This document shows, one piece after another, positions 1 through 12,245 of a stretch of 40,000 nt of DNA. The notes under the pieces were generated by a model that was given only the letters and a program-made list of their open reading frames with translations, searched no databases and was not told where the DNA came from. Where the stretch lies: the NCBI GenBank assembly GCA_963836465.1, contig CAWIJZ010000071.1:1-40000 (forward strand), in the 5' to 3' direction. Origin of the DNA: an uncultured Nitrososphaerota archaeon. Lineage in GTDB: Archaea; Thermoproteota; Nitrososphaeria; Nitrososphaerales; Gagatemarchaeaceae. How positions within the stretch are numbered: position 1 is the first letter of the stretch; every line of letters begins with the position of its first letter. Position numbers and translations under genes: made by a program.

Positions 1-288
1 ATATTCCCATCTTGGATCCAAGAACCAACACCCTATTTGATTGACATCTCTAACCGCGTCAAGATCGAATTTCTCCGCCAGCTCGATCTGCTCCTCCGCT
101 ATTTTCAAGTGAACCTCCTCAATCTTTCCTTTGGAGCAAGCCTCTAGGTACGTATGCGGATTGCGCTGGTAAACGGGCCTCTTGAACAGCTTCTCAAGCA
201 ACACACCGTTGATTCCAATGACGAATAGAGGAACCTGATCAGGTTCGCCACGCAACAATGCCTTAACAAAACGTTCTCTCGGGAACAT
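1..288 (-). CDS. URO-D (uroporphyrinogen decarboxylase / MtaA-like) superfamily protein, N-terminal part; the gene runs off the left window edge
   Basis: Not in the ORF track because the window truncates it. Reverse-strand translation from the ATG (complement of 286-288) gives MFPRERFVKALLRGEPDQVPLFVIGINGVLLEKLFKRPVYQRNPHTYLEACSKGKIEEVHLKIAEEQIELAEKFDLDAVRDV..., open to position 1. The ERF-x-KAL-x-GEP-x-D-x-VP N-terminus is the usual start of URO-D family enzymes. Confidence 0.45.
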   Translation of the reverse strand, partial: MFPRERFVKALLRGEPDQVPLFVIGINGVLLEKLFKRPVYQRNPHTYLEACSKGKIEEVHLKIAEEQIELAEKFDLDAVRDVNQIGCWFLDPRWEY

Positions 289-310
289 ATGAAGTGACAA
301 GAAATACTCG

Positions 311-324
311 CAGATATATGTTTG
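311..324. repeat. Left copy of the casposon target-site duplication (CAGATATATGTTTG; 15 bp if the ambiguous G325 is counted)
   Basis: Identical to 6204-6217. It directly abuts the outer end of the left terminal inverted repeat. Confidence 0.85.
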
Positions 325-426
325 GTGTGGATATGAGTGCCCCCAGAGTGGCCAGAATTGGCTAATCCTGAATACAGATTAGGGCTCTAGTATTTTGTTT
401 GGACTAGGTAAGCGAAAATGACTAGG
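325..426. repeat. Casposon left terminal inverted repeat (TIR-L, ~102 bp)
   Basis: 325-426 (GTGTGGATATGAGTGCCCCCAGAGTGGCCAGAATTGG...GCGAAAATGACTAGG) is the exact reverse complement of 6102-6203. I compared the two block by block and saw no mismatch. Confidence 0.9.
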
Positions 427-790
427 TTAAGTGCGGGATACTAGGGCTTCCACAATCTGAGAATGTTAGACTTGTCTAATGATTAAAGACCTATCTAATT
501 TAGAATTTCTCAAAAAGAAGACCAAAATGGGCTCTTTTGGTCTGCCCCCCGCACTTTTTGAAAAGGCGCTAATAAGAATCAAGCAATTGTTATTACGAAT
601 CACATAACTTTTATTAACTATACTCCTAGGTCTATACCGCATGAACGAAGCACTTTGTTATTAAATCTAGAAAAGCAAAGCTTTATAAGTAAGTAGGCTG
701 TTTTCTACAGATAGGTTTAAATCATGACAAATTTGGGCCTTGATGCGGACAGAGGGAAGAAAGGACAGATAAAGGGAGTGAGTAGGAGCC

Positions 791-985
791 TTGCTCAACA
801 GTAGGGCTTCTTCGCCTCATGGTGGTGTTACTTCTCGCACCTTCATTCCTCTTTATCTCGACACCTCAGAGTTTGAACCTCTGCAACATGAAGCCACTCG
901 GAGAGACATCTCCGTATTCGAGCTCATCCGAGAATATATCCGTGGTGGACTAGACGGTGGGCTAGAGAAAGGTGAGAATACGTGA
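791..985 (+). CDS. Small ribbon-helix-helix (CopG/Arc-like) DNA-binding protein, putative element regulator
   Basis: 64-aa ORF with a TTG start. The pattern is beta strand (TFIPLYLD), helix (TSEFEPLQHEA), then helix (SVFELIREYIRGGL), which is typical of RHH folds. It is the first gene after a ~360-bp non-coding arm. The start codon is uncertain. Confidence 0.45.
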   Translation: MLNSRASSPHGGVTSRTFIPLYLDTSEFEPLQHEATRRDISVFELIREYIRGGLDGGLEKGENT

Positions 986-1108
986 GCTCAGATACAATAT
1001 CAGAAAGAATCAAAAGAGCTCTAAGTTCGGTACTTTCAGATAAAAGGGAAACAAGCTCTAGCTACGTTACTTCCAGAAAAAGGAACTATTTCAAACCAAG
1101 GCGCTATC

Positions 1109-2107
1109 ATGGAGTCTCCAAATACTGGAATGGTCTCAAATGCTTCGCCCACGACACTTAGGGACGGGTCAAAGAACTGGGTCGTCAACTCGTGGGCCGG
1201 TTATGCGGTCTCGATAATCGAAGGGTTTGGCGCCGGACAAACGGTGCTTATCGGGTCGAATAACCAGACTACCCTTACGTTGACGTCCCCTTTTGCTACA
1301 GTTCCTAATTTTCAATCGGTCTATATCATCACTCAGCTCGCGTCTACTTCTACTGCCGTTCTTACGCCTAAAGGATTAATTTCGGTCACATCTTCACAAT
1401 CGACAGCTACAGACATAGAATCGGGCACGTGGACAACTTCGGCCAATACCAATTTCACTATGACCGTAAAAGGAAACGTCGTTGTTTTTGTTGTCGGGAG
1501 CGGCTCAATTCAAGGATATGGTGATACTCTGAAGCTGTTCCTAGATTCTACCGAAATAGAAGCCGGAGCGACCGCTGGTAATCCGGCCACGACCGGATTT
1601 ATCATTCTCTATGGGGGCTTGGCTTCAGTCAGCGCCGGAGTGCATACGCTTTACATGACTTCAAGCGGCAACCAAAGTGCACAAACTCTCACCTACTACA
1701 TCTTTCAGTCGATACTACCGATAATAGGAAAAGCGAAGGCCTATACAGCGAGTGGCAACGTCGGTGCCACTTTTACTTATGGCTCTGGTTCGCTTTCAGT
1801 CCCATATCCTACTGTCTCATCTCTGACTCCGAGCTACACGATTTATGACTACATGGAAGGGTCTGTCTCGGCTCAAGCCTACTCTTTCAACGTGACCGAC
1901 AACTCCGGCAATCCACTCGTTCAAATCACAACTCCGTCCGACACTCCTACGGTTGACGTACTCTATTCGGCCCAATACGTGACTACCGCATCTTTTCCCG
2001 ACGTTCTCACTGGCGTCTCTGTATCTAGTCCAGCTTCCAGTAGGGCATCAACGCAATTCGGGTTTATCGTGCTCGCTCTTCTAAGTCAGGTGGTGCAAAG
2101 TCCATGA
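1109..2107 (+). CDS. Ser/Thr/Gly/Val-rich, probably all-beta protein of unknown function; candidate surface or structural protein of the element
   Basis: 332-aa ORF with an ATG start. Composition is strongly biased. It carries several N-x-S/T sequons (NAS, NQT, NFT, NQS, NVT) and a short hydrophobic C-terminus (FGFIVLALLSQVV). I recognise no enzymatic motif. Its stop overlaps the next ORF's start (ATGA at 2104-2107). Confidence 0.6.
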   Translation: MESPNTGMVSNASPTTLRDGSKNWVVNSWAGYAVSIIEGFGAGQTVLIGSNNQTTLTLTSPFATVPNFQSVYIITQLASTSTAVLTPKGLISVTSSQSTATDIESGTWTTSANTNFTMTVKGNVVVFVVGSGSIQGYGDTLKLFLDSTEIEAGATAGNPATTGFIILYGGLASVSAGVHTLYMTSSGNQSAQTLTYYIFQSILPIIGKAKAYTASGNVGATFTYGSGSLSVPYPTVSSLTPSYTIYDYMEGSVSAQAYSFNVTDNSGNPLVQITTPSDTPTVDVLYSAQYVTTASFPDVLTGVSVSSPASSRASTQFGFIVLALLSQVVQSP

Positions 2108-2274
2108 CAACGAAGGTCGCTCGCGGAGTCTTTAACTTCTACAGTCCGACATTCGAGGCAACCCTTCTTAGTTGGATAACCGGACTTGGCATAACGACCG
2201 TCATTAGCATTTCGTCCGGCTTCGTCCAAAATAGCGGAGTTCTGGAGTTTTGCGCGGTGGTGATATACTCTTGA
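2104..2274 (+). CDS. Small hydrophobic (membrane) protein, 56 aa; below the ORF-track size cut-off
   Basis: The ATG at 2104 overlaps the TGA of the upstream ORF (ATGA). Translation is MTTKVARGVFNFYSPTFEATLLSWITGLGITTVISISSGFVQNSGVLEFCAVVIYS, with a TM-like core. Its TGA at 2272-2274 overlaps a TTG at 2271-2273 that could start the next gene. Confidence 0.4.
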   Translation: MTTKVARGVFNFYSPTFEATLLSWITGLGITTVISISSGFVQNSGVLEFCAVVIYS

Positions 2275-2771
2275 CCGTAAAAGGCTTAGAAAAATGGATA
2301 GCGCAAGAAGCCAAAGCCGAAAAGGCGCTTAGAGCGGCAGCTAGAAAGGGCAAACGAGAACGCAAGGAGCTTCTAGCCTTAGAAGAGGAGCTTCCCAAAG
2401 TCGAATCTCCAAAAGTCGAGCCTCCAAAGCCGGAATCGAAGCCACTCCCTCATTACGTCTTCGAGGCGCCTAGAATTCCCGAGACTCTAGACACTTCGAT
2501 AGCCTCATCGCTCTATGCAGTACCCAGCGCTTCTATTCCTATTCCGGTCGAGTCTCCGGTCATATCTCAGCCCCGACCACATAGAGTCAAAGCGCCTAAG
2601 TCCACGCCCAAGCCCGCACAACCAAGCTCACAACCAAGAGCGCCGGAGAAGAAAAACTCATGGGTGGACTGGCTTCTTATCGGCGTTATCATGTTTGGGA
2701 CTGCTTTTCTCGGTCTCTATGCGATTAAGCGACCACAACCTAAAAGAAAAGAGGTGAAGGGCTTTGCCTAG
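2250..2771 (+). CDS. Tail-anchored membrane protein with a coiled-coil and a Pro-rich spacer, unknown function
   Basis: 173-aa ORF starting at TTG 2250, or at TTG 2271. It has a Lys/Glu-rich N-terminal helix (EKWIAQEAKAEKALRAAARKGKRERKELLALEEEL), a Pro-rich repeat (KVESPKVEPPKPESKP) and a C-terminal TM helix (WVDWLLIGVIMFGTAFLGLYAI) followed by a basic tail. Confidence 0.6.
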   Translation: MRGGDILLTVKGLEKWIAQEAKAEKALRAAARKGKRERKELLALEEELPKVESPKVEPPKPESKPLPHYVFEAPRIPETLDTSIASSLYAVPSASIPIPVESPVISQPRPHRVKAPKSTPKPAQPSSQPRAPEKKNSWVDWLLIGVIMFGTAFLGLYAIKRPQPKRKEVKGFA

Positions 2772-3129
2772 AGGCGTTCCTAGGAAATTAAGCAACGACG
2801 AGCTTTCAAGCATCGCGGTGCTTTTTGATACCGGATGGGCTTATCGAGCGATATCAAAAGTGTTCTCAATCTCTGAGTACCGACTCGTCAAGACAGTCCA
2901 TGCGCTTAAGCTGAACTTCCCAGCGCACACGCGCGCACGTTACGAGCATCAGCATAAAGACTATGCACGAGCGCACAAGCGGCAAATCGACCATCCAGAC
3001 GAGACCTTCTGGAAGGCCTACAGGTATTCGAAAATCAATTCAGAGCTGGGGCTGGACATTCACTTCAACCCAATTAGGAAGAGAGCTAAGGAACTACTCA
3101 AGCGGTTAAGAAAGCGTGGTTCTCCATGA
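2764..3129 (+). CDS. Basic helix-turn-helix protein, unknown function, immediately upstream of polB
   Basis: 121-aa ORF with a TTG start that overlaps the upstream stop by 8 nt. It has an HTH-like segment (LSNDELSSIAVLFDTGWAYRAISKVFSISEYRLVKTV) and a very basic C-terminus (IRKRAKELLKRLRKRG). Its stop overlaps the polB ATG (ATGA at 3126-3129). Confidence 0.55.
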   Translation: MPRGVPRKLSNDELSSIAVLFDTGWAYRAISKVFSISEYRLVKTVHALKLNFPAHTRARYEHQHKDYARAHKRQIDHPDETFWKAYRYSKINSELGLDIHFNPIRKRAKELLKRLRKRGSP

Positions 3130-5192
3130 ACACAATCGAGCCGGAAATTCAGAATCTTCCCCTAATCCATGACTCCCTTAAAGGCGCTAGACTCGACTCC
3201 GTATTCTCGAAGGTTCTAGGTCTCCCTAGGAGAGTTCCTAAAGAGCCTCTAGGCTTCGATATCGAGTCTGACCAGAACGGAGACATTTACCTTATCGCCT
3301 CAGAAAACAAGTATCTCTTTCTCGATGGCCTTCCCCTAGAAGCGCGTTCTATACTTGCGGTGTATTTTCTCTATCAGGAAGGCTTCGGCCACGTTTGCGC
3401 CTTTTTCAATATCGACTATGACTTTCGAGGTATTGTGAAAGGCTTTATCGTGGAGAAGCCAAAAGAAGAACAAAACCAAATCAGAAAATCGAAGCGTATA
3501 GTAGACGGCGAATACACAATCGACTGGATAAAAGGAAAATCTTTCAAAATCAACAACCCTAGACGCGACTGTGTTTGGGCTTATGATACAGCTAATTTCT
3601 TCGACGGCTCTCTAGAATCAGTCAGTCAAAAGTACCTTGGAGAAGGGAAGGGCGAGCTGTCAAACGAAAAGCTTGATATGAAACATCCTGAAAAGTATCT
3701 CCCTACTCCAAAAGGGAGAAAGCTCCTTAGAGAGCGGTGCATGAAAGACGCCGGTCTCGCCGGAGAGTTGTTGCGATATCTTAGGAAACTCTGTCTCGAC
3801 AATCTTGAAATTGACCCTCCACAATATAATTCTGAAGGCGGTCTCTCCGAGTATTACCTCATTAAGAACGTCGAGCTAAAACACCTTAAGCCCTTCGCTA
3901 TCGAGGGCTTTGACGAATGGGGGCACAATATGGGTAAAGACGTCCACAGAAAGCTAACGCCAAAAATCGTCGAACAAAAGGCGCTATATGAGCAAGTCCT
4001 CGAATACGCCTATCGCTCCTATTATGCGGGTATCTTCTATACTCCATGGCGCGGCCCCGTCGATTTTGCCGTGGAGCTCGATATCACTTCAGCATATCCT
4101 TACCAAATGTCAAAACTAATTAGTCTTTCAGACGGAGAATGGAGAGAAGCTCCTAAAGGCAACTATTCGCCGGAAGCTTGTTACGGCTTCTATCACGCTT
4201 TCATGCGGCCAAACGGAGAATTTCCTTTTCGACTTAAAGGAGAAAAGACAATCTATCCAAAATTCGACTCGGAATTTCTAGAGCGATGGGTAACGAAAGA
4301 CGAGCTTGAATACCTTCTTGAAACCAAGTGTCCGGTCAACATGGTTGACGGCTTCGAGTTCTTTCTCGACGACCCCGAGCACTCTGTTTACCCTTTCAAG
4401 AACGCCGTTTCAAAACTCTTCACCTTAAAGAACGAAGCCGAAAAGTCTGGCGATAAAGGACTTAGGCTTCTCTACAAAACCATTCTAAACGGGATGTATG
4501 GCAAGACCGCACAGAACGTCGAGACTCCTTTCTCTGAATACTTCAAGTCTAGAGTTGGAAGGCTCTTCAATCCGGTATACTCTGCAGTCATTACCGCAAG
4601 AACAAGGCTCGTGCTCTGGAAGAGAGCTAAGAAATACCTCGACCCTATTTACTATCTTGCTACCGATGCAGCGTGTGGAAAGCCCCGTCCGGATGTAGGA
4701 ATAGGGCCCGTATCTGACGAGCTGGGGGACTTTCAGATAAAATATCTGGAAGAGAAAGACGGAGAGCCGAGCAGACGATTCTTCACGGGGTGCATCTTAT
4801 TACAAAATGGCGTGATAACGGACTCTAACGGAACATTCATCAAGACTAGAGGCTTCGCAAAACTAGAAGGCAAGAAACTCATTTACGATAAGGAAAAGGG
4901 GTTCGGGGTAATGACAACCCACGTGATGGGCCTTGCAGAGTCGATACGAAGAAAAAGCGCTGAGAAAATCAACTGGTTTGACGAGAAGACCTTCAGAAGC
5001 ATTAACCCAGTAAATGATTTGTTAATCTATCCGAAAGAGCTTTGGGAAAATCCCAGTCTGGTGCTGACAAAAGGATTCAAGTGCGAACCGGTAGACGAGG
5101 CCTTTATGAAGTCGTGGGAAATACCGGAAAAGAGAAAGGCGCCTCAAACGCTTGTAGCAAGTGCTCCCTCAACGCGAAGGCACACTCCGTGA
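3126..5192 (+). CDS. polB: Family-B DNA polymerase (casposon PolB)
   Basis: 688 aa. Recognisable motifs are Exo I (LGFDIESD), Exo II (FFNIDYDFRGI), Pol A (ELDITSAYPYQM, DxxSxYP), Pol B (KTILNGMYGKTAQ, KxxxNxxYG) and a Pol C-like motif (YYLATDAACG). The last is ATD rather than the canonical DTD. Confidence 0.9.
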   Translation: MNTIEPEIQNLPLIHDSLKGARLDSVFSKVLGLPRRVPKEPLGFDIESDQNGDIYLIASENKYLFLDGLPLEARSILAVYFLYQEGFGHVCAFFNIDYDFRGIVKGFIVEKPKEEQNQIRKSKRIVDGEYTIDWIKGKSFKINNPRRDCVWAYDTANFFDGSLESVSQKYLGEGKGELSNEKLDMKHPEKYLPTPKGRKLLRERCMKDAGLAGELLRYLRKLCLDNLEIDPPQYNSEGGLSEYYLIKNVELKHLKPFAIEGFDEWGHNMGKDVHRKLTPKIVEQKALYEQVLEYAYRSYYAGIFYTPWRGPVDFAVELDITSAYPYQMSKLISLSDGEWREAPKGNYSPEACYGFYHAFMRPNGEFPFRLKGEKTIYPKFDSEFLERWVTKDELEYLLETKCPVNMVDGFEFFLDDPEHSVYPFKNAVSKLFTLKNEAEKSGDKGLRLLYKTILNGMYGKTAQNVETPFSEYFKSRVGRLFNPVYSAVITARTRLVLWKRAKKYLDPIYYLATDAACGKPRPDVGIGPVSDELGDFQIKYLEEKDGEPSRRFFTGCILLQNGVITDSNGTFIKTRGFAKLEGKKLIYDKEKGFGVMTTHVMGLAESIRRKSAEKINWFDEKTFRSINPVNDLLIYPKELWENPSLVLTKGFKCEPVDEAFMKSWEIPEKRKAPQTLVASAPSTRRHTP

Positions 5193-6054
5193 ATTTGCTT
5201 TCATATCGTCTCTTGCTCCCCTTCCATGCGCTTAGTCTGCCGGAGACCTCTTGAATGACTTCTCTTCTCGCGTTCTCTCCTAGTCTCACTTGAAAATCTT
5301 GCGTTCTAATGAAGTCACTAAGTGTCACTTTCTTTTCTCTTACTAAGCCCACTGTCGCGCGTTCGACTAGCGAGCGCCCTAATTCCTGAAAATCATAGAC
5401 CAGTGGAGTTTTGTACGGAGCCATTTCATGCAGAAAGCCAATTTGAGCGTCAAGTCCGGCGAAAGCGATGGCCTTTCTACAAGTGCCCGCTAAAATGGAA
5501 TAGCCATAATTTAACATGGCATTTACCGGATTCGTTGCGTGTAAGCTCTGCGCTGAAGGATTGTTTCCTTTACGCCCCAAATAGCTTTTGAAGCTTGGAT
5601 TAGTCCTTATCGCGTTTGTAAATTCTCGGAAAATTTGTGCTGTTAAACTGCCTTCGGCCAAAAGAAGGGCCTTACTGTCTTGAACGCGTTTTATCGAAGA
5701 AAAGTCTTCAAGCCCCGACGTTTGAGCACGACCTTCGACAAACGCTTTTGCAATTGAAAGCTTTCTTCCTCTATCGCAATACGCTTTGTATTGTTGGATT
5801 CTGACTTTGCCGACTTTTGATTCTGAAGGGACTAGAGAGCAATACATCTCCCCGCGTGAGTCTAGAAAGGAAATGGAAGCACCACCATAAGTTAACCACC
5901 GAAGCGCGTCGATTGTGATATAACCTGAGGGAGACGAGAAAACCAAGTTGGCGTTTTTCAGTTTGCCCAAGTCGATTTTCTCCGAGCCGGTATCTAGTCT
6001 GAGATGATTTACCTTTAGATAGGAACTCCTAGAATCAAGTAAAAGGCTTTGCAT
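5104..6054 (-). CDS. cas1: Cas1-family integrase (casposase)
   Basis: 316 aa. The Cas1 hallmarks are ATNPVNAMLNYGYSILAGTC, LDAQIGFLHE (catalytic His region) and PLVYDFQELGRSLVE (acidic D/E-x-x-E-x-R motif), plus an N-terminal beta-domain-like MQSLLLDSRSSYLKVNHLRL. The start lies 48 bp inside TIR-R. The 3' end overlaps the polB 3' end convergently by 89 nt. Confidence 0.9.
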   Translation of the reverse strand: MQSLLLDSRSSYLKVNHLRLDTGSEKIDLGKLKNANLVFSSPSGYITIDALRWLTYGGASISFLDSRGEMYCSLVPSESKVGKVRIQQYKAYCDRGRKLSIAKAFVEGRAQTSGLEDFSSIKRVQDSKALLLAEGSLTAQIFREFTNAIRTNPSFKSYLGRKGNNPSAQSLHATNPVNAMLNYGYSILAGTCRKAIAFAGLDAQIGFLHEMAPYKTPLVYDFQELGRSLVERATVGLVREKKVTLSDFIRTQDFQVRLGENARREVIQEVSGRLSAWKGSKRRYESKFTECAFALREHLLQAFEAPFSFPVFPTTS

Positions 6055-6058
6055 GGCT

Positions 6059-6070
6059 AAACGCGCGTTT
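6059..6070. promoter_or_regulatory. Perfect 12-bp palindrome AAACGCGCGTTT between a TATA-like box and the cas1 start; candidate operator
   Basis: Read on the minus strand, the region is ...AAAGAGTTAATGGCCTAGACAAACGCGCGTTTAGCC-ATG. An AT-rich TTAAT element lies about 25 nt upstream of the cas1 ATG, and the palindrome sits between the two. Confidence 0.3.
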
Positions 6071-6101
6071 GTCTAGGCCATTAACTCTTTTGTCCTTTTG
6101 C

Positions 6102-6203
6102 CCTAGTCATTTTCGCTTACCTAGTCCAAACAAAATACTAGAGCCCTAATCTGTATTCAGGATTAGCCAATTCTGGCCACTCTGGGGGCACTCATATCCA
6201 CAC
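6102..6203. repeat. Casposon right terminal inverted repeat (TIR-R, ~102 bp)
   Basis: Exact reverse complement of 325-426. Confidence 0.9.
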
Positions 6204-6217
6204 CAGATATATGTTTG
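6204..6217. repeat. Right copy of the casposon target-site duplication (CAGATATATGTTTG; G6218 makes it 15 bp)
   Basis: Identical to 311-324 and directly abuts TIR-R. Confidence 0.85.
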
Positions 6218-6343
6218 GGGACCGCGCGAAGTCGCTGCCTCCACGCTCGGCAGTGTGAGCGGTGCCCTTATGGTTCTCACTGCCAACGTATCCTTGTGCT
6301 CTGATTCAGTGAATGAAACCTTGGTAATTTCTTCAGCTTTTTC

Positions 6344-7147
6344 TTATGCTGCGAGGCCTGTTATAGCAATCGGCCTCACGGGCGAACCTGTTGCTCCGAC
6401 AAGCTTCAGTGGTAAGCAGACGAACAGAAATTCATGCTTTCTTTCTGACGCGAGTCCATCGAGATTCAGGTTTCCCAGAATGCAAATCCCATTTTGCACA
6501 ATTAAGTAAACGTGGCATGGCAGGGTGACACCCATCTCTGGGTCGGGTGCACCCGTGTCGAGTTCCCAAGCCATGTTGTCAGCACCTACGACTGAAACGC
6601 CTTTTGACACGAGCCATCTTGTTGCGGCGAGGGAGACCCCAGCCGCGCTCGCGTACCTCCCGGGATGGTTCCAGTACTTGGCGTATCCTGTCCTCACAAG
6701 CAAGACATCCCCTCTCTTGATCTTGATGCCTTCGGCTTCACAACATCTCCTGAGGTCCTCTTCCGCAATACCATAGTGTGGAGGAAGAACCCTCACCTTC
6801 ATGATGCGAGGCACATCAAGGAGTAGTCCTCGGCCCACAATAGGCCTGAGATTCTCCACCCCATTCTTCGTGAAGCCATAGGGAGTCTCGACCTGAGGCG
6901 TTACTTTGATACCCCCGTTCAGCTTGTGGTCAAGAGCCATGTGGCTGAGAGCATCAATATGCGTGCCTGTGTGCTCACCCATGACTAGTAGACCTGAAGC
7001 GCCGCTTCTTGTCCTCCCAGAAATGGCAGTGTCCTTGTGCTGCCTGTGTAGTAGGTACCTGTACCCAGTTGGCACATGAGCCGGGTGGATCGGCATGCCC
7101 TGGAATCTTGGTTGTTCCAAGTCATATACTCTGAACTCTTTCTTCAA
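6344..7147 (-). CDS. Cyclase-family metal-dependent hydrolase (kynurenine formamidase-like)
   Basis: 267 aa. It carries the HxGTHxDxxxH motif (EHTGTHIDALSHM) that characterises the putative-cyclase family. Confidence 0.75.
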   Translation of the reverse strand: MKKEFRVYDLEQPRFQGMPIHPAHVPTGYRYLLHRQHKDTAISGRTRSGASGLLVMGEHTGTHIDALSHMALDHKLNGGIKVTPQVETPYGFTKNGVENLRPIVGRGLLLDVPRIMKVRVLPPHYGIAEEDLRRCCEAEGIKIKRGDVLLVRTGYAKYWNHPGRYASAAGVSLAATRWLVSKGVSVVGADNMAWELDTGAPDPEMGVTLPCHVYLIVQNGICILGNLNLDGLASERKHEFLFVCLPLKLVGATGSPVRPIAITGLAA

Positions 7148-7324
7148 GGCCTCTCAATTCTCTTGCCTCGCCTAGGCTTCTTTTAGTTTTGTCGGCATTT
7201 CGAGGTGGCGTTTTAGGAGAATGTCACGTGGTCAGGTTTCCTTCCAGTGAGTCAGTGTTTTGTTCTCTTCGATTCGACCCGAGCATAGGCCAATCGCGCG
7301 GGGTGTCAGGTGCGCGAACTCCAA

Positions 7325-8425
7325 CTACACTCTATATTGCTGGGGGTTGGTCCGAACCTCTCGCACGAAATCGGATACGAGTCGGTCCAAGTTACCAAAT
7401 CGTGGCTTCCAGCCCAATTCTGTCAAACGAGTCATGTCCATATTCCTGCTGCTCGAGGCGATCATTCGATTCATCTCCTCATCGGGCTCGAAGGTGATAC
7501 GTGCGTTCGGTATTGTTCTCTTCACGGATGCCACAAGTTCTCTGGCCGTGGGGTTTCTTAGCCCAACGACATTGAAGATTCTCTCGCTAAGTGAGGATAT
7601 CTTCTTCCTCACAGTGAGCGTGGCGTCAACGGCGTCCTTCACGTAGACGATGGGGATTCTTGCGTGTTCCGGGAGGCGGACGACGTATGGCTCTCCCTGT
7701 GCTGCCTTTTGAAAGATGAGGGTCGCGTAGGCGGTTGCTCCGCCCTCGCCCCGGCCGGGACCTATTATGGATGCATAGCGCAACGCAGCAAAATCAATCC
7801 CATACTTGCGCTGGTACCAGCTTCCAAGCATTTCACCGTAGATTTTCGAGATTCCGTACAGAGTTACTGGAGGGTAGTACATGAACTCTTTCATGGTGCG
7901 CGCATTGTCATCACCGTAGGCGAGGGTGCTGCTCGCGAAAAGCACCTCCCTGACGTCGGCCTTCCTCGCGGCATCGAAGAGGGACCAGAGGGACGAGATG
8001 TCCACCGAGTAGCCCATGGTTGGGTCAGCCTCCGCCGCCGCAGAGAGAAGGGCGGCGTAGTGAACGAGGACGCTCGGCTTGTAGAGCTTGAACGCTCGTC
8101 CCAATTCTTCGATCTGCTCGATACCACCTTTGTGGAAGACAACCTCTCTTTCGCTGTGCCCGACGATTGACGTGTTCTTCCTCACATCGTAGAGCACTAC
8201 TTCATCTCCGGAGTCAATTATGCTCTTGGCGAGCCACTGCCCTAGGAAGCCGCACCCCCCAGTGATGAGGAATGTCGCCAATGGTCTCTGCCAGGGCTTC
8301 GCGAGCGCCGTACTTGAGTCCTTCGCATACTTGTCAATGAACCACGCTATTGAACCGGCTTCAATCCCATCGGCCTCGGCACGTTCACATGGAGCGTTCT
8401 TGCGATGCTGGTGATCTCGTCCCAC
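7325..8425 (-). CDS. NAD-dependent epimerase/dehydratase family protein (extended SDR)
   Basis: It has a Rossmann motif (ITGGCGFLGQWLA) and a catalytic YxxxK (YGISKIYGE). The ORF-track start overlaps the upstream gene by 79 nt. A TTG at 8282 (MATFLITGGCGFLG) looks like a more plausible start. Confidence 0.75.
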   Translation of the reverse strand: MGRDHQHRKNAPCERAEADGIEAGSIAWFIDKYAKDSSTALAKPWQRPLATFLITGGCGFLGQWLAKSIIDSGDEVVLYDVRKNTSIVGHSEREVVFHKGGIEQIEELGRAFKLYKPSVLVHYAALLSAAAEADPTMGYSVDISSLWSLFDAARKADVREVLFASSTLAYGDDNARTMKEFMYYPPVTLYGISKIYGEMLGSWYQRKYGIDFAALRYASIIGPGRGEGGATAYATLIFQKAAQGEPYVVRLPEHARIPIVYVKDAVDATLTVRKKISSLSERIFNVVGLRNPTARELVASVKRTIPNARITFEPDEEMNRMIASSSRNMDMTRLTELGWKPRFGNLDRLVSDFVREVRTNPQQYRV

Positions 8426-9432
8426 GTAGCATCTTCTATGAATATGCCGTTCTTCAGCCTCTTCTGTTCCTCGATGAGCTCTGGTTCTCCGGGTATCAGA
8501 ATCTCCTTCACTCCTGGCGCCTTTTTGCTCATCCTGACCCTACTGATCGTTTCATCGAGTCTTCGCTTGAACGCAGCGACCGGCCCGAACCTTGAGATGT
8601 CAATCGTCAGCATGAAAACCCCGTTGCCACCAGAAAACCCCTTTGCTTTCAGCATTGAAACCCCTTTGCTCGAGGCGCTCCCGTTTCCGCTCAACGCGCC
8701 ACTCAGAATATCGACTAGGAAGGCCAGTCCATAACCCTTGTACCCGACATTTCCACCAATTGGGAGGATGGAACCACCGTTGAAGAAATCATCAGGCTCG
8801 ACGCTAGGAGCACCGTTCTTGTCAACTATCCACCCTTCGGGAAGCTTTTCGCCTCTTGCCTTCTTCACAGCTATCTTGCCCACCGCGCAAACGCTCATGC
8901 ATATGTCCAGCGAGAATGGATGCTGCTTGTCGCCAGTAGGGACGGCCGCGCCGAGGGGACTCGGGTTGAACATCCTTTCTATGCCCCCGAAAGGCGCCAC
9001 CGATGGATATGAGTTGACCATTGTGATTCCGATCATATCTTCTTTCATAGCCATTAGAGAATAGTCAGCCATTCTTCCAATGTGTCCGCAGTTGTAGATG
9101 CAAAACGCGGACACGCCGAATTTCTTTCCCTTTTCAATTGCCATCCTCATAGCCTGAGTCGCAACCACCTGTCCGAATCCCGCGTTACCGTTGATCAGAC
9201 CCATGGCGCCATCGTCGACTTCAAGGACACCTTTCGCCTTTGGATTCAGTTTTCCCTCGTCTATCTCCTTGACGTAGGGCATTATCCGAATGACACCATG
9301 AGAGTCGTGTCCAGCCAGATTAGCCTTCACGAGAAGGTCCGAAACCGTTTCAGCGTTCTCGTCCGAGGCGCCTTTCCTTGAGAAGATTGCTCTAGTCAGC
9401 GACTTGAGCTGGTCAGCGCGAATGTTTGGCAT
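8347..9432 (-). CDS. Ldh_2-family oxidoreductase (type-2 malate / L-lactate / sulfolactate dehydrogenase family)
   Basis: 361 aa. Family-typical segments are LAGHDSHGVIR, GFGQVVATQAM and NPSPLGAAVP...FSLDICMSVCAVGKI. Confidence 0.75.
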   Translation of the reverse strand: MPNIRADQLKSLTRAIFSRKGASDENAETVSDLLVKANLAGHDSHGVIRIMPYVKEIDEGKLNPKAKGVLEVDDGAMGLINGNAGFGQVVATQAMRMAIEKGKKFGVSAFCIYNCGHIGRMADYSLMAMKEDMIGITMVNSYPSVAPFGGIERMFNPSPLGAAVPTGDKQHPFSLDICMSVCAVGKIAVKKARGEKLPEGWIVDKNGAPSVEPDDFFNGGSILPIGGNVGYKGYGLAFLVDILSGALSGNGSASSKGVSMLKAKGFSGGNGVFMLTIDISRFGPVAAFKRRLDETISRVRMSKKAPGVKEILIPGEPELIEEQKRLKNGIFIEDATWDEITSIARTLHVNVPRPMGLKPVQ

Positions 9433-9502
9433 GACGGCGTTCGTGAGCCATTTAGCTCGCTATAAGAGTTCCCAACTATTAGGTTAGATTCGACGTGTCT
9501 GA

Positions 9503-10020
9503 TTCGATTGTCAAACCACAGTCTCGATCCTCCTGGTCCTCGCGTGGGCCGGTTATGAAGTTGGATTCCATGGACGGCGAACATCCATGGGATTGAGAAC
9601 GCCACTTTTGCTCATCTCGTGCGGGCTCTGCAAGGAGATTTGCCCGGTGGACATCGACATTCCCATGATGATCGCGAAGGTCAAGAGTCAGGAGATTGCG
9701 CTGGACGGCCAGCTCAATCTCAGAGAATCCGACCGCAGACTTATCGCCACAGAGAGCAGCGTGTGCGCCATGCAGTCGAACGATGGACTCCACGCGAGGG
9801 TGATGCATCCACTCTACTTCGTCAAGCCCGAGTTGGTGAGTTAATATGTCATCGGCATTTCCCCGCCGAAAGCTTCTGGGACCTCTGCAACGGATGCTCT
9901 GGTTCCGTGGTTGCGCCAAGCAGACGAAGTGAACTCCTGTTGGAGTCCGAGTCGGGGGATGCACTGTCGCCCTTCTGCCCCAACAATGGCAGTGTCGCAG
10001 GCCTGCGAACAGGTTAGGGG
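9503..10020 (+). pseudogene. Possible remnant of an Fe-S (ferredoxin-type / CCG-domain, GlcF/HdrD-like) oxidoreductase gene
   Basis: One frame reads LLLISCGLCKEICPVDIDIPMMIAKVK, a CxxCxxxCP 4Fe-4S motif. Downstream, a different frame holds Cys-rich pieces (CNGCSG..., ...DALSPFCPNNG...). No single long frame is convincing, and the ~600-bp gap is too short for a full-length homolog. Confidence 0.3.
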
Positions 10021-10041
10021 TTTAATTACCAGTGCACGCAG

Positions 10042-10554
10042 GTGCCTGTTTGTGCTGGCATGAGGTACACAGAGAACGCGATGAAGCTCCTGGCGTGCAC
10101 CGACTTCGGAGAGATATTCGAGCTAGTCAAGACGGCCGCGGAGCAGTCGCTAGGCATGCACCGGGCGGGACTTACGCTCGTCCTCGGGGACCTCCCGAAC
10201 TCCGTAGGCGCGTACCACGAGCTCGGTTCGAACTCGATAGTGATGAACCGCAACCTCGTGAAGGTAGTTTGGGAGATAAGCGACTCCCAAAACATGAGGA
10301 ACTCCTATGTGTTCATGATACTCCTCCATGAGTACCTCCACAGCCTCGGGTTCGCGGACGACGCCCAGGTGAGAGAGCTGAGCGAGAGGATATCAACGGA
10401 CTACTTGGGGGATGGACACGTTGCAGCCGAAATGGCCGTGAACTCGCTCGAAAAGTTCTTCCCGGATGTGGGACGCTACACGATGTTCCGCGACCGTGGC
10501 GCGTACGAGACTGTCAGGAAGTTCGACTCTTCGAGCACTTCCTATATCGCATAG
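10042..10554 (+). CDS. Hypothetical protein with an HExxH zinc-metallopeptidase-like motif
   Basis: 170-aa ORF containing ILLHEYLHSLGF (HExxH). The real start may be an internal Met (MRYTENAMKLL...). Confidence 0.55.
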   Translation: MPVCAGMRYTENAMKLLACTDFGEIFELVKTAAEQSLGMHRAGLTLVLGDLPNSVGAYHELGSNSIVMNRNLVKVVWEISDSQNMRNSYVFMILLHEYLHSLGFADDAQVRELSERISTDYLGDGHVAAEMAVNSLEKFFPDVGRYTMFRDRGAYETVRKFDSSSTSYIA

Positions 10555-10636
10555 CGACCATAGGGGTTTCAGTCGTCCCAAGCACCCTACAGCGTAAATG
10601 TAGGTTCTTTCGGGCCTCGAGTGGAGCGCCTTAGGC

Positions 10637-12245
10637 ATGATTGATGTGCCTACGATAGTTCTTGGCATCGCCTTCTCCTGGATCAGGATGATACTGGCGC
10701 TCAGTCTGAGCATCGTGTTCGCGCTCGTGGTCGGAATTACAGCAGCGAGGAACAAGCGGGCGGAGGCGGTGATACTGCCGCTGCTAGACGTTTTCCAGTC
10801 AATTCCGATTCTAGGGTTCTTCCCCATCATCATCTATGGTATCTACTCCGTTCTGCCCAACGATATTGGTGCCAACCTTGCGGTGATTGTCCTAATCTTC
10901 ACCAGCATGTCCTGGAACATTGCCTTCGGTGTCTACGAGGGCGTCAAGGCAATACCACAAGACTATGTAGACCTGCTGGACATGTCCAAGGCGAGCGCGT
11001 GGCAGAGGACGAAGTCGTTGTACATTCCCGCCTCCCTTAGCCGCATCGCCTACAATACGCAAGTTTCTTGGGCCGTCGGCCTATTCTTTCTCGTTTCGAG
11101 TGAGATTATCACCCTGGGAACTCGCATAGTTCCAATCAAGTATGGTATAGGAATCGCGGCAATGAACTTCGCCAGCAGTAATCCACCTGACTATGTTAAC
11201 TACACACTCTCGATAGTAGCTCTCATCGTGACCGTCGTTGTGTGGAGGTTCGTCTTTCTTAGGGAATTCGCGCTCTGGTCAGAGCGGTACAAGATGATGG
11301 AAGAGCCAAGAGAAGCTCACAGAGATCCCATCATGAGATTTTACTCCTGGGTGAATCAAAGAAGTGTCTCCAAACTGTTTCTGCTGACGCAAGGAAGAGG
11401 TGTGAACAGGTTCACATCGGCAATCTACAGGTTCAGGAGGGGAATCAAGTACGCCGTCGCGATCTTGCTCGTTGTGTTCGTGCTGTTTGAGCTAGGTGCA
11501 ACAATGAGCGTTGGAGGTGCGGGTCTGCGCCCACTTCCTCAGGCTTCGGTTCTGCTTTCAGACGAGGGGCAGGTACTCTTCGCGCTTGCCAGCTCTTTTC
11601 TGAGGGTTTGGTACGTCTATGCTATTTGCGCTGCGATCGGGCTCCCACTTGGCATAGTCATATCTCTGAACTTCAAGCTCTACGACACGGTCTCTCCGAT
11701 TCTGGAAGTGATATCCTCGATCCCTGGTCCGATACTACTTCCGGTGTATAATCCTGATTCCCGTGATTGGCACATCTGGAGAGGCGGTAGCCGCAATAAT
11801 CATTATGTTAGCGATTATCTGGTACGTGATTTTCAACGTGATGGCTGGGGTCAGGACGCTACCGGCTGACCTCAAGGACCTTCCCAAAGAGTTCCACGTT
11901 TCGAGATTCTCGGCGTGGAGGAATGTCTACATTCCAGGCTCCATAACGGCTTTCGTAACAGGCTCGATAACCGCGATTGGGGGCGCGTGGAATGCACTGA
12001 TTGTAGCCGAGTACTTTACGTCCCAACGTTCTGTGTGTGTGAATGGAAAGGTCGTCAGCGCCAATGTCCTCACGCAAGTAGGCGCAGGAATAGGCAAGTC
12101 CATAACACTCGCTACTGCCTGTAACGACATCACTATGCTCACACTCGCTGTTCTTTCGATGACTGCTCTTATCGTGGCGTTCAACCTGATAGTCTGGAGG
12201 AGGGTGTACCATCACGCAACGAAACGCTATGCATACAACAGATAA
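10637..12245 (+). pseudogene. ABC transporter permease with two tandem permease domains (NitT/TauT-like); interrupted by one +1 frameshift as sequenced
   Basis: ORF 10637-11869 and ORF 11763-12245 are the two halves of one gene. Domain 1 reads LDVFQSIPILGFFPIIIYG. Domain 2 reads LEVISSIPGPILLPV and breaks near 11748-11751, then continues in the +1 frame as IILIPVIGTSGEAVAAIIIMLAIIWYVIFNVMAGVRTLP. Removing one A from the AA at 11750-11751 would give LLPVYILIPVIG. Confidence 0.75.

Follow-up and report, generated by a model that had tools for sequence, protein, structure and literature searches.

The window analyzed here is a stretch of 40,000 nucleotides from an uncultured Nitrososphaerota archaeon (assembly GCA_963836465.1, contig CAWIJZ010000071.1, positions 1 to 40,000 of the forward strand). 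An intact casposon of about 5.9 kb, with six to seven genes, is located within its first 6.2 kb, at positions 326-6203. The element encodes a family-B DNA polymerase of the protein-primed type (PolB), a Cas1 casposase, and, directly upstream of polB, a series of small cargo proteins (positions 791-3129). A preliminary description of the cargo had taken it for a virion or envelope module. We describe the structure of the element, its relationships to other casposons and to viruses, and the possible roles of the cargo.

Organization of the casposon and its cargo operon

The element has the attributes of a casposon. These are a Cas1 gene without a CRISPR array (a repeat scan of window positions 1-8000 found no CRISPR-like repeat family), an internal gene for a family-B polymerase, and terminal inverted repeats (TIRs) that are flanked by a target-site duplication (TSD) (Table 1). 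The inverted repeat as detected is 116 nt long (positions 311-426 and 6102-6217, with 97% complementarity), and it separates into the 15-bp TSD and perfect TIRs of about 101 nt. It extends past the TIRs because the TSD is partly palindromic. With an independent public contig, positions 323-426 are the reverse complement of positions 6102-6205, at 100% over 104 nt. The element appears young and intact in view of its perfect TSD, the 104 nt of identical termini, the complete set of PolB motifs, and the full-length Cas1, and it has probably been active recently.

About 90% of the element is coding. The host genes on either side have a higher GC content (0.53-0.55, and 0.57-0.67 at the third codon position) than the element (0.46-0.51), and its insertion site is intergenic. 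No rRNA or tRNA is found in the window. The nearest relatives of its Cas1 among GTDB genomes are all from Nitrosopumilus, Nitrosotalea, Nitrosarchaeum or Nitrososphaera, and the host is probably an ammonia-oxidizing thaumarchaeon.

Table 1. Features of the casposon, in window coordinates
Feature	Position	Strand	Basis
Left TSD, CAGATATATGTTTGG	311-325		Exact 15-nt direct repeat with 6204-6218
Left TIR, ~101 nt	326-426		Inverted-repeat detection
Non-coding leader with A/T-rich TATA-like boxes (TTTATAA 682-688, TTTAAAT 716-722)	427-790	+	By eye; short doubtful ORFs only
Putative ribbon-helix-helix (RHH) regulator, 64 aa	791-985	+	Pfam RHH_1, E=0.026, below cutoff
Basic Ser-rich ORF, 59 aa, doubtful gene	982-1161	+	ORF call; GC at first codon position 0.33
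Acidic Ser/Thr/Gly-rich protein, 332 aa, short hydrophobic C-terminus	1109-2107	+	Composition; beta-rich at low confidence
N-terminal beta-barrel domain, ~75 aa (residues 5-80 of the 332-aa protein)	1121-1348	+	Homologs and AlphaFold2 model
Moderately hydrophobic protein, 56 aa	2104-2274	+	Grand average of hydropathy 0.85
Basic protein, 173 aa, C-terminal transmembrane helix	2250-2771	+	Hydropathy; 166 aa with TTG 2271 as start codon
Basic protein, 121 aa, pI 10.4, directly before polB	2764-3129	+	ORF call; position
PolB, protein-primed, 688 aa	3126-5192	+	PF03175, 4e-14; phrog_11768, 1.6e-27
Cas1 casposase, 316 aa, no extra domain	5104-6054	-	PF01867, 6e-43; TIGR00287, 7e-40
Right TIR	6103-6203		Inverted-repeat detection
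Right TSD	6204-6218		Perfect 15-bp match to left TSD, CAGATATATGTTTGG

All the open reading frames (ORFs) that the preliminary description had placed ahead of polB are found, and polB follows them directly. The junctions that it reported (ATGA at 2104, TTGA at 2271, an 8-nt overlap at 2764, and ATGA at 3126) were verified by direct reading. The stop codon of the RHH gene overlaps the 59-residue ORF in GTGA (982-985), and the genes for the 332- and 56-residue proteins are joined by ATGA (2104-2107). The TTGA at 2271-2274 contains a TTG (2271) that is in frame with the TTG at 2250 and is preceded by a sequence resembling a Shine-Dalgarno (SD) motif, GGTGGTGA. The genes for the 173- and 121-residue proteins overlap at 2764-2771, with GAGGTGA located 7 nt upstream of TTG 2764, and ATGA (3126-3129) links the latter gene to polB. 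SD-like GGTGA motifs are present before both of these genes. The overlapping stops and starts, together with the SD-like motifs, can fairly be read as a single, tightly overlapped operon that enters polB, and the cargo proteins are probably co-translated. The A/T-rich boxes of the leader would provide a putative promoter.

The 59-residue ORF has an atypical composition compared to its neighbors, with GC contents of 0.33, 0.48, and 0.42 at the three codon positions. It overlaps the next gene by 53 nt, and no homologs were found for it. Its status as a gene is doubtful, and it may instead be non-coding spacer.

The assignment of the 64-residue protein to the RHH family in the preliminary description has a sub-threshold match only (14.9 bits, with a cutoff of 20.5), and profile searches give no support for a helix-turn-helix (HTH) in the 121-residue protein. 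A search of PDB sequences with these two proteins produced nothing meaningful. There is no significant match for any cargo ORF in Pfam, PHROGs, NCBIfam, or PADLOC, and the cargo is, as had been noted, unlike the nuclease or methylase type.

The convergent polB and cas1 genes, on opposite strands, have an overlap of 89 nt at their 3′ ends (5104-5192). This arrangement is unusually tight and could give rise to coupling of, or interference with, expression. A Logan contig of 2,969 nt (ERR10755942_1731937) is 100% identical to window positions 6205-3237. One of its ends coincides exactly with the outer tip of the TIR, with 2 nt of the TSD included. Such an end could result from a break in the assembly at the inverted repeat, or could hint at a linear copy in free form. 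In the host region, two overlapping ORFs on the same strand at 10637-12245 (410 and 160 residues, in different frames) resemble pieces of a multi-pass membrane permease; a frameshift in a gene, or an error in the sequence, may account for them.

The polymerase, the casposase, and related elements

PolB has intact Exo I and Exo II motifs, and its motifs A, B, and C are likewise complete. The 'TD' form of its motif C is also found in the PolBs of the viruses His1 and His2, to which the protein can be aligned with E values of about 1e-17. Among viruses, its best matches are in actinobacterial tectiviruses and in two pleolipoviruses, His2 and Hardyhisp2. The polymerase groups with those of His1, His2, and the tectiviruses. 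The possibility that PolB is inactive for want of the first Asp of a DTD motif was considered and rejected, as 'TD' is found throughout the His1/His2 clade.

No retrieved sequence is more than 30% identical to PolB. No sister element was found among GTDB genomes with PolB as the query, and JGI metagenome contigs yielded only distant PolBs (22-29% identity). A search of IMG/VR with PolB, the PolB alignment, and the 332-, 121-, and 173-residue proteins found no relatives. The nearest PolBs are encoded on eight metagenomic contigs of 7-10 kb (L001-L008), which carry neither Cas1 nor a homolog of the cargo. The genes on these contigs nearly all have the same direction. A protein of about 210-225 residues in two of them (L001 and L002) matches tape-measure-like PHROGs, and three (L004-L006) carry an AAA_24 gene, with an HNH gene in addition in L004. 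The contigs are possibly uncharacterized small linear viruses or plasmids.

The Cas1 protein consists of the Cas_Cas1 domain alone. Its nearest relatives are Nitrosopumilaceae proteins of about 410 residues (31-36% identity), which have in addition a C-terminal HTH-like extension.

The closest published counterparts of the element are the family-1 casposons. They are found in Thaumarchaeota and have a compact Cas1 and a protein-primed PolB that is a sister to those of His1 and His2 (PMC4046053). In the canonical members (NitAR1-C1, NitAR2-C1, and NitEve-C1) the PolB has 584-594 residues, and three conserved small genes, those of arCOG14992 and arCOG14321 and a candidate terminal-protein gene, are located upstream of it; NitNF5-C1, NitNF5-C2, and NitDev are further members (Krupovic et al. 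2014, 2019). The element has in common with this family a Cas1 without extra domains, a His1/His2-related PolB, TIRs, a TSD of about 15 bp, and a run of small uncharacterized genes directly before polB. Moreover, NitEve-C1 is likewise inserted intergenically. On the other hand, the PolB of the element is longer (688 residues), and its Cas1 gene is convergent with polB and overlaps the 3′ end of that gene. A protein with a domain of the phage-tail or adhesin type, as found at the N-terminus of the 332-residue protein (see below), and a tail-anchored protein comparable to the 173-residue one receive no mention for family-1 casposons in the available parts of Krupovic et al. (2014, 2019).

A second comparison was made with 40 Cas1 loci of the Nitrosopumilaceae type from GTDB genomes, 21 of which have a PolB of 880-965 residues with a DTDS motif C. 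The genes before polB in these 21 loci encode an HNH-like protein, a conserved protein of about 170 residues, and an AbrB-like or Zn-ribbon protein (labels assigned from motifs by reading). Searches with HMMs (hidden Markov models) and hhalign show no relation between these small genes and the ORFs in the window. The Nitrosopumilaceae casposons (L009-L047) are similar to the element in their Cas1 (28-34% identity), in the pPolB-like motifs, and in having small genes before polB. They differ in the DTDS motif C, in the HTH-like extension of Cas1, and in the orientation of the Cas1 gene, which is divergent from the polB operon. Their size and architecture (for example L010, 4047-9831) are also unlike those of the canonical family-1 elements described in PMC6563490.

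Several Cas1 loci are present in some genomes, three in OX638319.1, three in OZ252092.1, and six contigs of the metagenome-assembled genome (MAG) JAJCXK01; not all of them have an intact PolB. In one locus of the Nitrososphaera sp. MAG NZ_1224 (L039, 8606-9657), the Cas1-HTH gene is split into ORFs of 102 and 202 residues, and no PolB is located nearby. The split gene adjoins an ORF of 548 residues that resembles, by eye, a thermosome (chaperonin) subunit. This locus is probably a decayed casposon remnant.

Taken together, the sequence comparisons show a family-1-like casposon that is highly divergent. Its upstream operon is unlike the small-gene set of the Nitrosopumilaceae casposons examined.

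Cargo proteins and their comparison with viral proteins

The 332-residue protein is the largest in the cargo. As described earlier, it is rich in Ser and Thr (28% together) and Gly (9%); Asn accounts for 4.8%, and the pI is 4.4. The N-X-S/T sequons to which the preliminary description drew attention are present and are not enriched, with five observed and about 4.3 expected from the content of these residues. The hydrophobic C-terminus is a segment of only 13 residues (FGFIVLALLSQVV), and no 19-residue window reaches a Kyte-Doolittle value of 1.6, which is short of transmembrane (TM) grade. No signal peptide is found on this protein or on any other cargo ORF. A PEF/PGF-CTERM sorting signal at the C-terminus was considered and rejected, as there is no NCBIfam match, basic tail, or signal peptide.

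A word-indexed search through 5.8 billion clusters with this protein finds only itself. With a full HMMER scan, 762 proteins are found among 1.84 billion representatives at E<=1e-3, 121 of them at E<=1e-10. All of the matches cover only residues 5-80 or so, mostly several times in each target. The targets are large proteins built from tandem units of about 70 residues (consensus TSTTLqD.sK.Wt.nqWaG..v.I.sGtGaGQ.r.I.sNTa.tLtv...W.t.Pd.tS.Y.I), and several of them begin with lipoprotein-type signal sequences. In one homolog the repeat unit is interspersed with LamG domains. Residues 85-332 have no homolog, including within the proteins that match the N-terminal segment.

The N-terminal segment is a complete domain with a clean start, covering positions 3-80 of the 82 in the profile. 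The AlphaFold2 model of this domain, based on an alignment of 60 sequences, is a small beta-barrel with a mean predicted local distance difference test score (pLDDT) of 91.8. In comparison, the single-sequence model of the whole protein has a pLDDT of 31, and the prediction that it is beta-rich is of low confidence.

A Foldseek search of predicted viral structures (BFVD) with the domain gives 18 matches at E<=1e-3, and the five best have 26-33% identity and rms distances of 0.4-1.5 Å. The 18 matches are large proteins, mostly from uncultured tailed phages. For 11 of them no protein name is given; among those with a name are a pectate lyase superfamily protein, a DUF4815 domain-containing protein, and a tail protein. 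Two giant-virus (Mimivirus) proteins are also among the matches, one of them named chaperone of endosialidase. In the cyanophage Pam2, the domain is located within an 875-residue protein of the tail gene cluster. Cellular copies have lipoprotein signal sequences and non-mobile contexts. In a 1.01-Mb contig (CAXNJO010000001.1, positions 6001-11258), three proteins with the repeat domain (480, 291, and 443 residues) are encoded within about 5 kb, with unannotated neighbors and a 1399-residue ORF just upstream.

The domain family is not in Pfam, where it shows borderline similarity to Phage_BR0599 only, and its profile has no match among PDB sequences. Against PDB structures, Foldseek gives nothing at E<=0.001 (best 7e-3). 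The sub-threshold matches mix phage tail, gene transfer agent, and tailspike chains with the unrelated FCCH barrel of Uba1, and homology to these folds was rejected as generic barrel similarity. A kinship of the 332-residue protein with picornavirus VP1 was likewise rejected, as the PDB sequence matches have non-significant E values of 0.24-0.4. The Gp5_C match is also not significant (E=0.4).

The segment at residues 5-80 is a promiscuous surface or virion-fiber module, present in one copy on an otherwise orphan protein. The largest cargo protein thus does bear a domain typical of surface or virion-fiber proteins, and the beta-barrel is shared with phage proteins of the tail-module and spike-like types; its body (residues 85-332) has no homolog. 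The domain is the only positive item for the virion hypothesis, and it cuts both ways, since it occurs in phage tail proteins as well as in hundreds of ordinary secreted proteins of cells. Cellular homologs, which the preliminary description had named as contrary to its proposal, exist for this segment only and are secreted proteins. Occurrence outside mobile elements, also named there, is seen for one homolog of the segment, in a plain metabolic neighborhood (P0011, between ordinary redox-enzyme genes), and the repeat is found in phage tail proteins as well.

The 56-residue protein, described earlier as hydrophobic, is only moderately so and has no TM-grade segment, as no 19-residue window has a Kyte-Doolittle value of 1.6 or above. 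It has no homologs, including in Pfam, PHROGs, the ORFs of His1 and His2, and the contigs with the nearest PolBs. The 173-residue protein has a charged helical N-terminus, a Pro-rich linker (13% Pro), and a single TM segment at residues 138-160 (nt 2661-2729), followed by a basic tail. At least one cargo protein is therefore membrane-anchored, as had been proposed. No homologs of the 173-residue protein and no family match for the 121-residue protein were found in Pfam, PHROGs, NCBIfam, GenBank phages (by tblastn), or IMG/VR.

The 121-residue protein is a candidate for the terminal protein, by its position and by published precedent. The gene next upstream of polB in family-1 casposons has been proposed to encode the terminal protein (Krupovic et al. 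2014, PMC4046053). The idea, put forward in the preliminary description too, is therefore not new, and both it and the block of small genes before polB are known features of the family (Krupovic et al. 2014).

The resemblance of the cargo to a virion or pleolipovirus-like module was examined through comparison with His1 (Halspiviridae) and His2 (Gammapleolipovirus). Both viruses have in common with the element the PolB clade, its motif pattern, and TIRs, and His1 also has small overlapping ORFs, including one for a membrane protein, before polB. They differ in having linear double-stranded DNA genomes of 14-16 kb with about 35 ORFs and no Cas1, compared to 5.9 kb for the element. Signal peptides and anchors are annotated for their structural proteins, and an AAA ATPase (ORF33) is encoded by His2.

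Only PolB gives matches when the ORFs of His1 and His2 are compared to the element, and none of their structural or membrane ORFs resembles the cargo. No capsid protein was found. The 332-residue protein lacks the signal peptide and C-terminal anchor of a VP4-like spike, and is unlike His2 ORF28, ORF29, and ORF30. For a VP3-like internal membrane protein, which would be multi-pass or have a signal peptide, the weakly hydrophobic 56-residue protein and the single-pass 173-residue protein are present, and neither resembles the His2 ORFs. The 56-residue protein does not have the two hydrophobic helices of the small major capsid protein of spindle-shaped viruses (Halspiviridae, Thaspiviridae, and Fuselloviridae); it is unlike His1 ORF21 and matches no PHROG. 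No Walker A motif (P-loop) is present in the six frames of 326-6203, and as a result there is no packaging or pleolipovirus-type NTPase; a counterpart of the VP8-like NTPase (the AAA ATPase ORF33 of His2) is likewise absent from this region. A search of viral collections (IMG/VR and phages) found no relatives. With no PHROG match, signal peptide, similarity to His1 or His2 cargo, or viral relatives, and with sequons at the level of chance, the proposal of a virion or envelope module was not borne out, and it is weakly supported at present.

Possible roles of the cargo operon

We hold with moderate confidence that 791-3129 is a composite, a lineage-specific operon of a self-synthesizing transposon in which a replication set is combined with a captured binding protein. 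The element is most likely a transposon and not a particle-forming virus, as it possesses all the parts required of a casposon and none of the defining features of a virion. In this arrangement, the RHH protein would autoregulate the operon, and the 121-residue protein would be the priming terminal protein or another replication factor that binds the DNA ends. The 173-residue protein may tether the protein-primed replication complex to the membrane. In bacteriophage phi29, such tethering is provided by the membrane-associated proteins p16.7 and p1, of which p16.7 is anchored at its N-terminus. The 173-residue protein resembles them as a small, membrane-anchored protein with a coiled coil or charged helix in a protein-primed replicon. 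This would be a functional analogy; the anchor is at the C-terminus in the 173-residue protein rather than at the N-terminus as in p16.7, and no sequence relationship is expected. The 332-residue protein would be the captured binding protein. For its C-terminal 250 residues and the 56-residue protein, an accessory function associated with the envelope, for example exclusion or attachment, would be the most economical guess.

Several observations weigh against this proposal. The roles given to the 121-, 173-, and 56-residue proteins are drawn from position, charge, and hydrophobicity, without homology, and 250 residues of the 332-residue protein are without any characterization. By the positive-inside rule, the basic C-terminal tail of the 173-residue protein would be in the cytoplasm and its N-terminal 137 residues outside, a somewhat poor fit to a tether. 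The characterized members of the PolB clade (His1, His2, and the tectiviruses) are all membrane-containing viruses, and the Cas1-less contigs with the nearest PolBs may be viruses as well. Moreover, a domain of the phage-tail type is unexpected as transposon cargo.

In a virus-like alternative, raised in the preliminary description, the element would be a Cas1-integrating provirus or an intermediate between casposons and viruses, the 332-residue protein a spike or receptor-binding protein, and the small membrane proteins the envelope or capsid. The 'TD' motif C and the His1/His2/tectivirus type of PolB would fit this alternative, as would the small, linear-looking contigs of the nearest PolBs, the phage-tail-type domain with membrane or hydrophobic small proteins adjoining it, and the chain of small ORFs with a TM protein that likewise precedes polB in His1. 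Pleolipoviruses and spindle-shaped viruses also have TIRs and protein-primed PolBs. The 332-residue protein, with its phage-fiber-type N-terminal domain, would then serve for attachment, and the 56- and 173-residue proteins would recruit host membrane around a linear 5.9-kb genome capped by the terminal protein, in the manner of a pleolipovirus vesicle. Such a minimal Cas1-integrating agent, linking casposons to small membrane-containing archaeal viruses with protein-primed PolBs, seems to us improbable. The element has only 5.9 kb and six to seven genes, and no P-loop, whereas the NTPase is conserved in pleolipoviruses (ORF33 in His2). The putative spike has no signal peptide, unlike the structural glycoproteins of His1 and His2, and its sequons are at chance level. 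Similarity to their structural ORFs or to any PHROG is absent, as are relatives in IMG/VR, and the domain occurs just as commonly in cellular proteins. Casposons are also described as lacking capsid genes (PMC4046053). On balance, we consider a provirus or intermediate very unlikely.

A function at the cell surface unrelated to replication is another alternative, with the 332-, 56-, and 173-residue proteins forming a membrane-associated complex that alters the host envelope, for example for superinfection exclusion of viruses or other casposons, or for adhesion. The three genes are adjacent and overlapping, a TM anchor is present in one of the proteins and hydrophobic segments in two, and the family of the N-terminal domain is elsewhere extracellular or on the virion surface. 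Defense-type cargo is, moreover, common in casposons (PMC6563490). We nonetheless regard such a module as unlikely, as the absence of a signal peptide on the trio leaves the 332-residue protein without an evident route to the surface, there is no PADLOC match, and with no homologs a conservation of the trio cannot be demonstrated. It is also conceivable, though we think it hardly probable, that part of the cargo is non-functional. The 59-, 56-, and possibly 332-residue ORFs would then be decaying remnants or mis-called, for example a captured fragment of a repeat gene, and only the RHH protein, the 121-residue protein, PolB, and Cas1 would matter. The atypical codon-position GC content of the 59-residue ORF, the failure of the full-length 332-residue protein to find a homolog beyond its first 80 residues in the two large collections, and its single domain copy, which resembles one unit excised from a multi-repeat protein, are in keeping with such decay. 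However, an open frame of 999 nt that is coupled exactly to the next gene by ATGA is unlikely to have persisted by chance at about 49% GC, and the domain is complete with a clean N-terminal start in an element that is otherwise young and intact.

The CRISPR adaptation module has been proposed to descend from casposons. The polymerase of their family-1 branch is held in common with small archaeal viruses (PMC4046053). If the cargo were structural, virion genes would be seen in a casposon for the first time, and the present evidence falls short of this. The element is a very divergent intact casposon; no retrieved sequence exceeds 30% identity to its PolB or 36% to its Cas1. Its cargo has nothing detectable in common with the small genes of 21 related casposons, and includes a domain of cell surfaces and phage tails. 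It widens the known gene repertoire of casposons, and provides a compact candidate, of six or seven genes, for the combination of protein-primed replication, membrane tethering, and possible transfer between cells.

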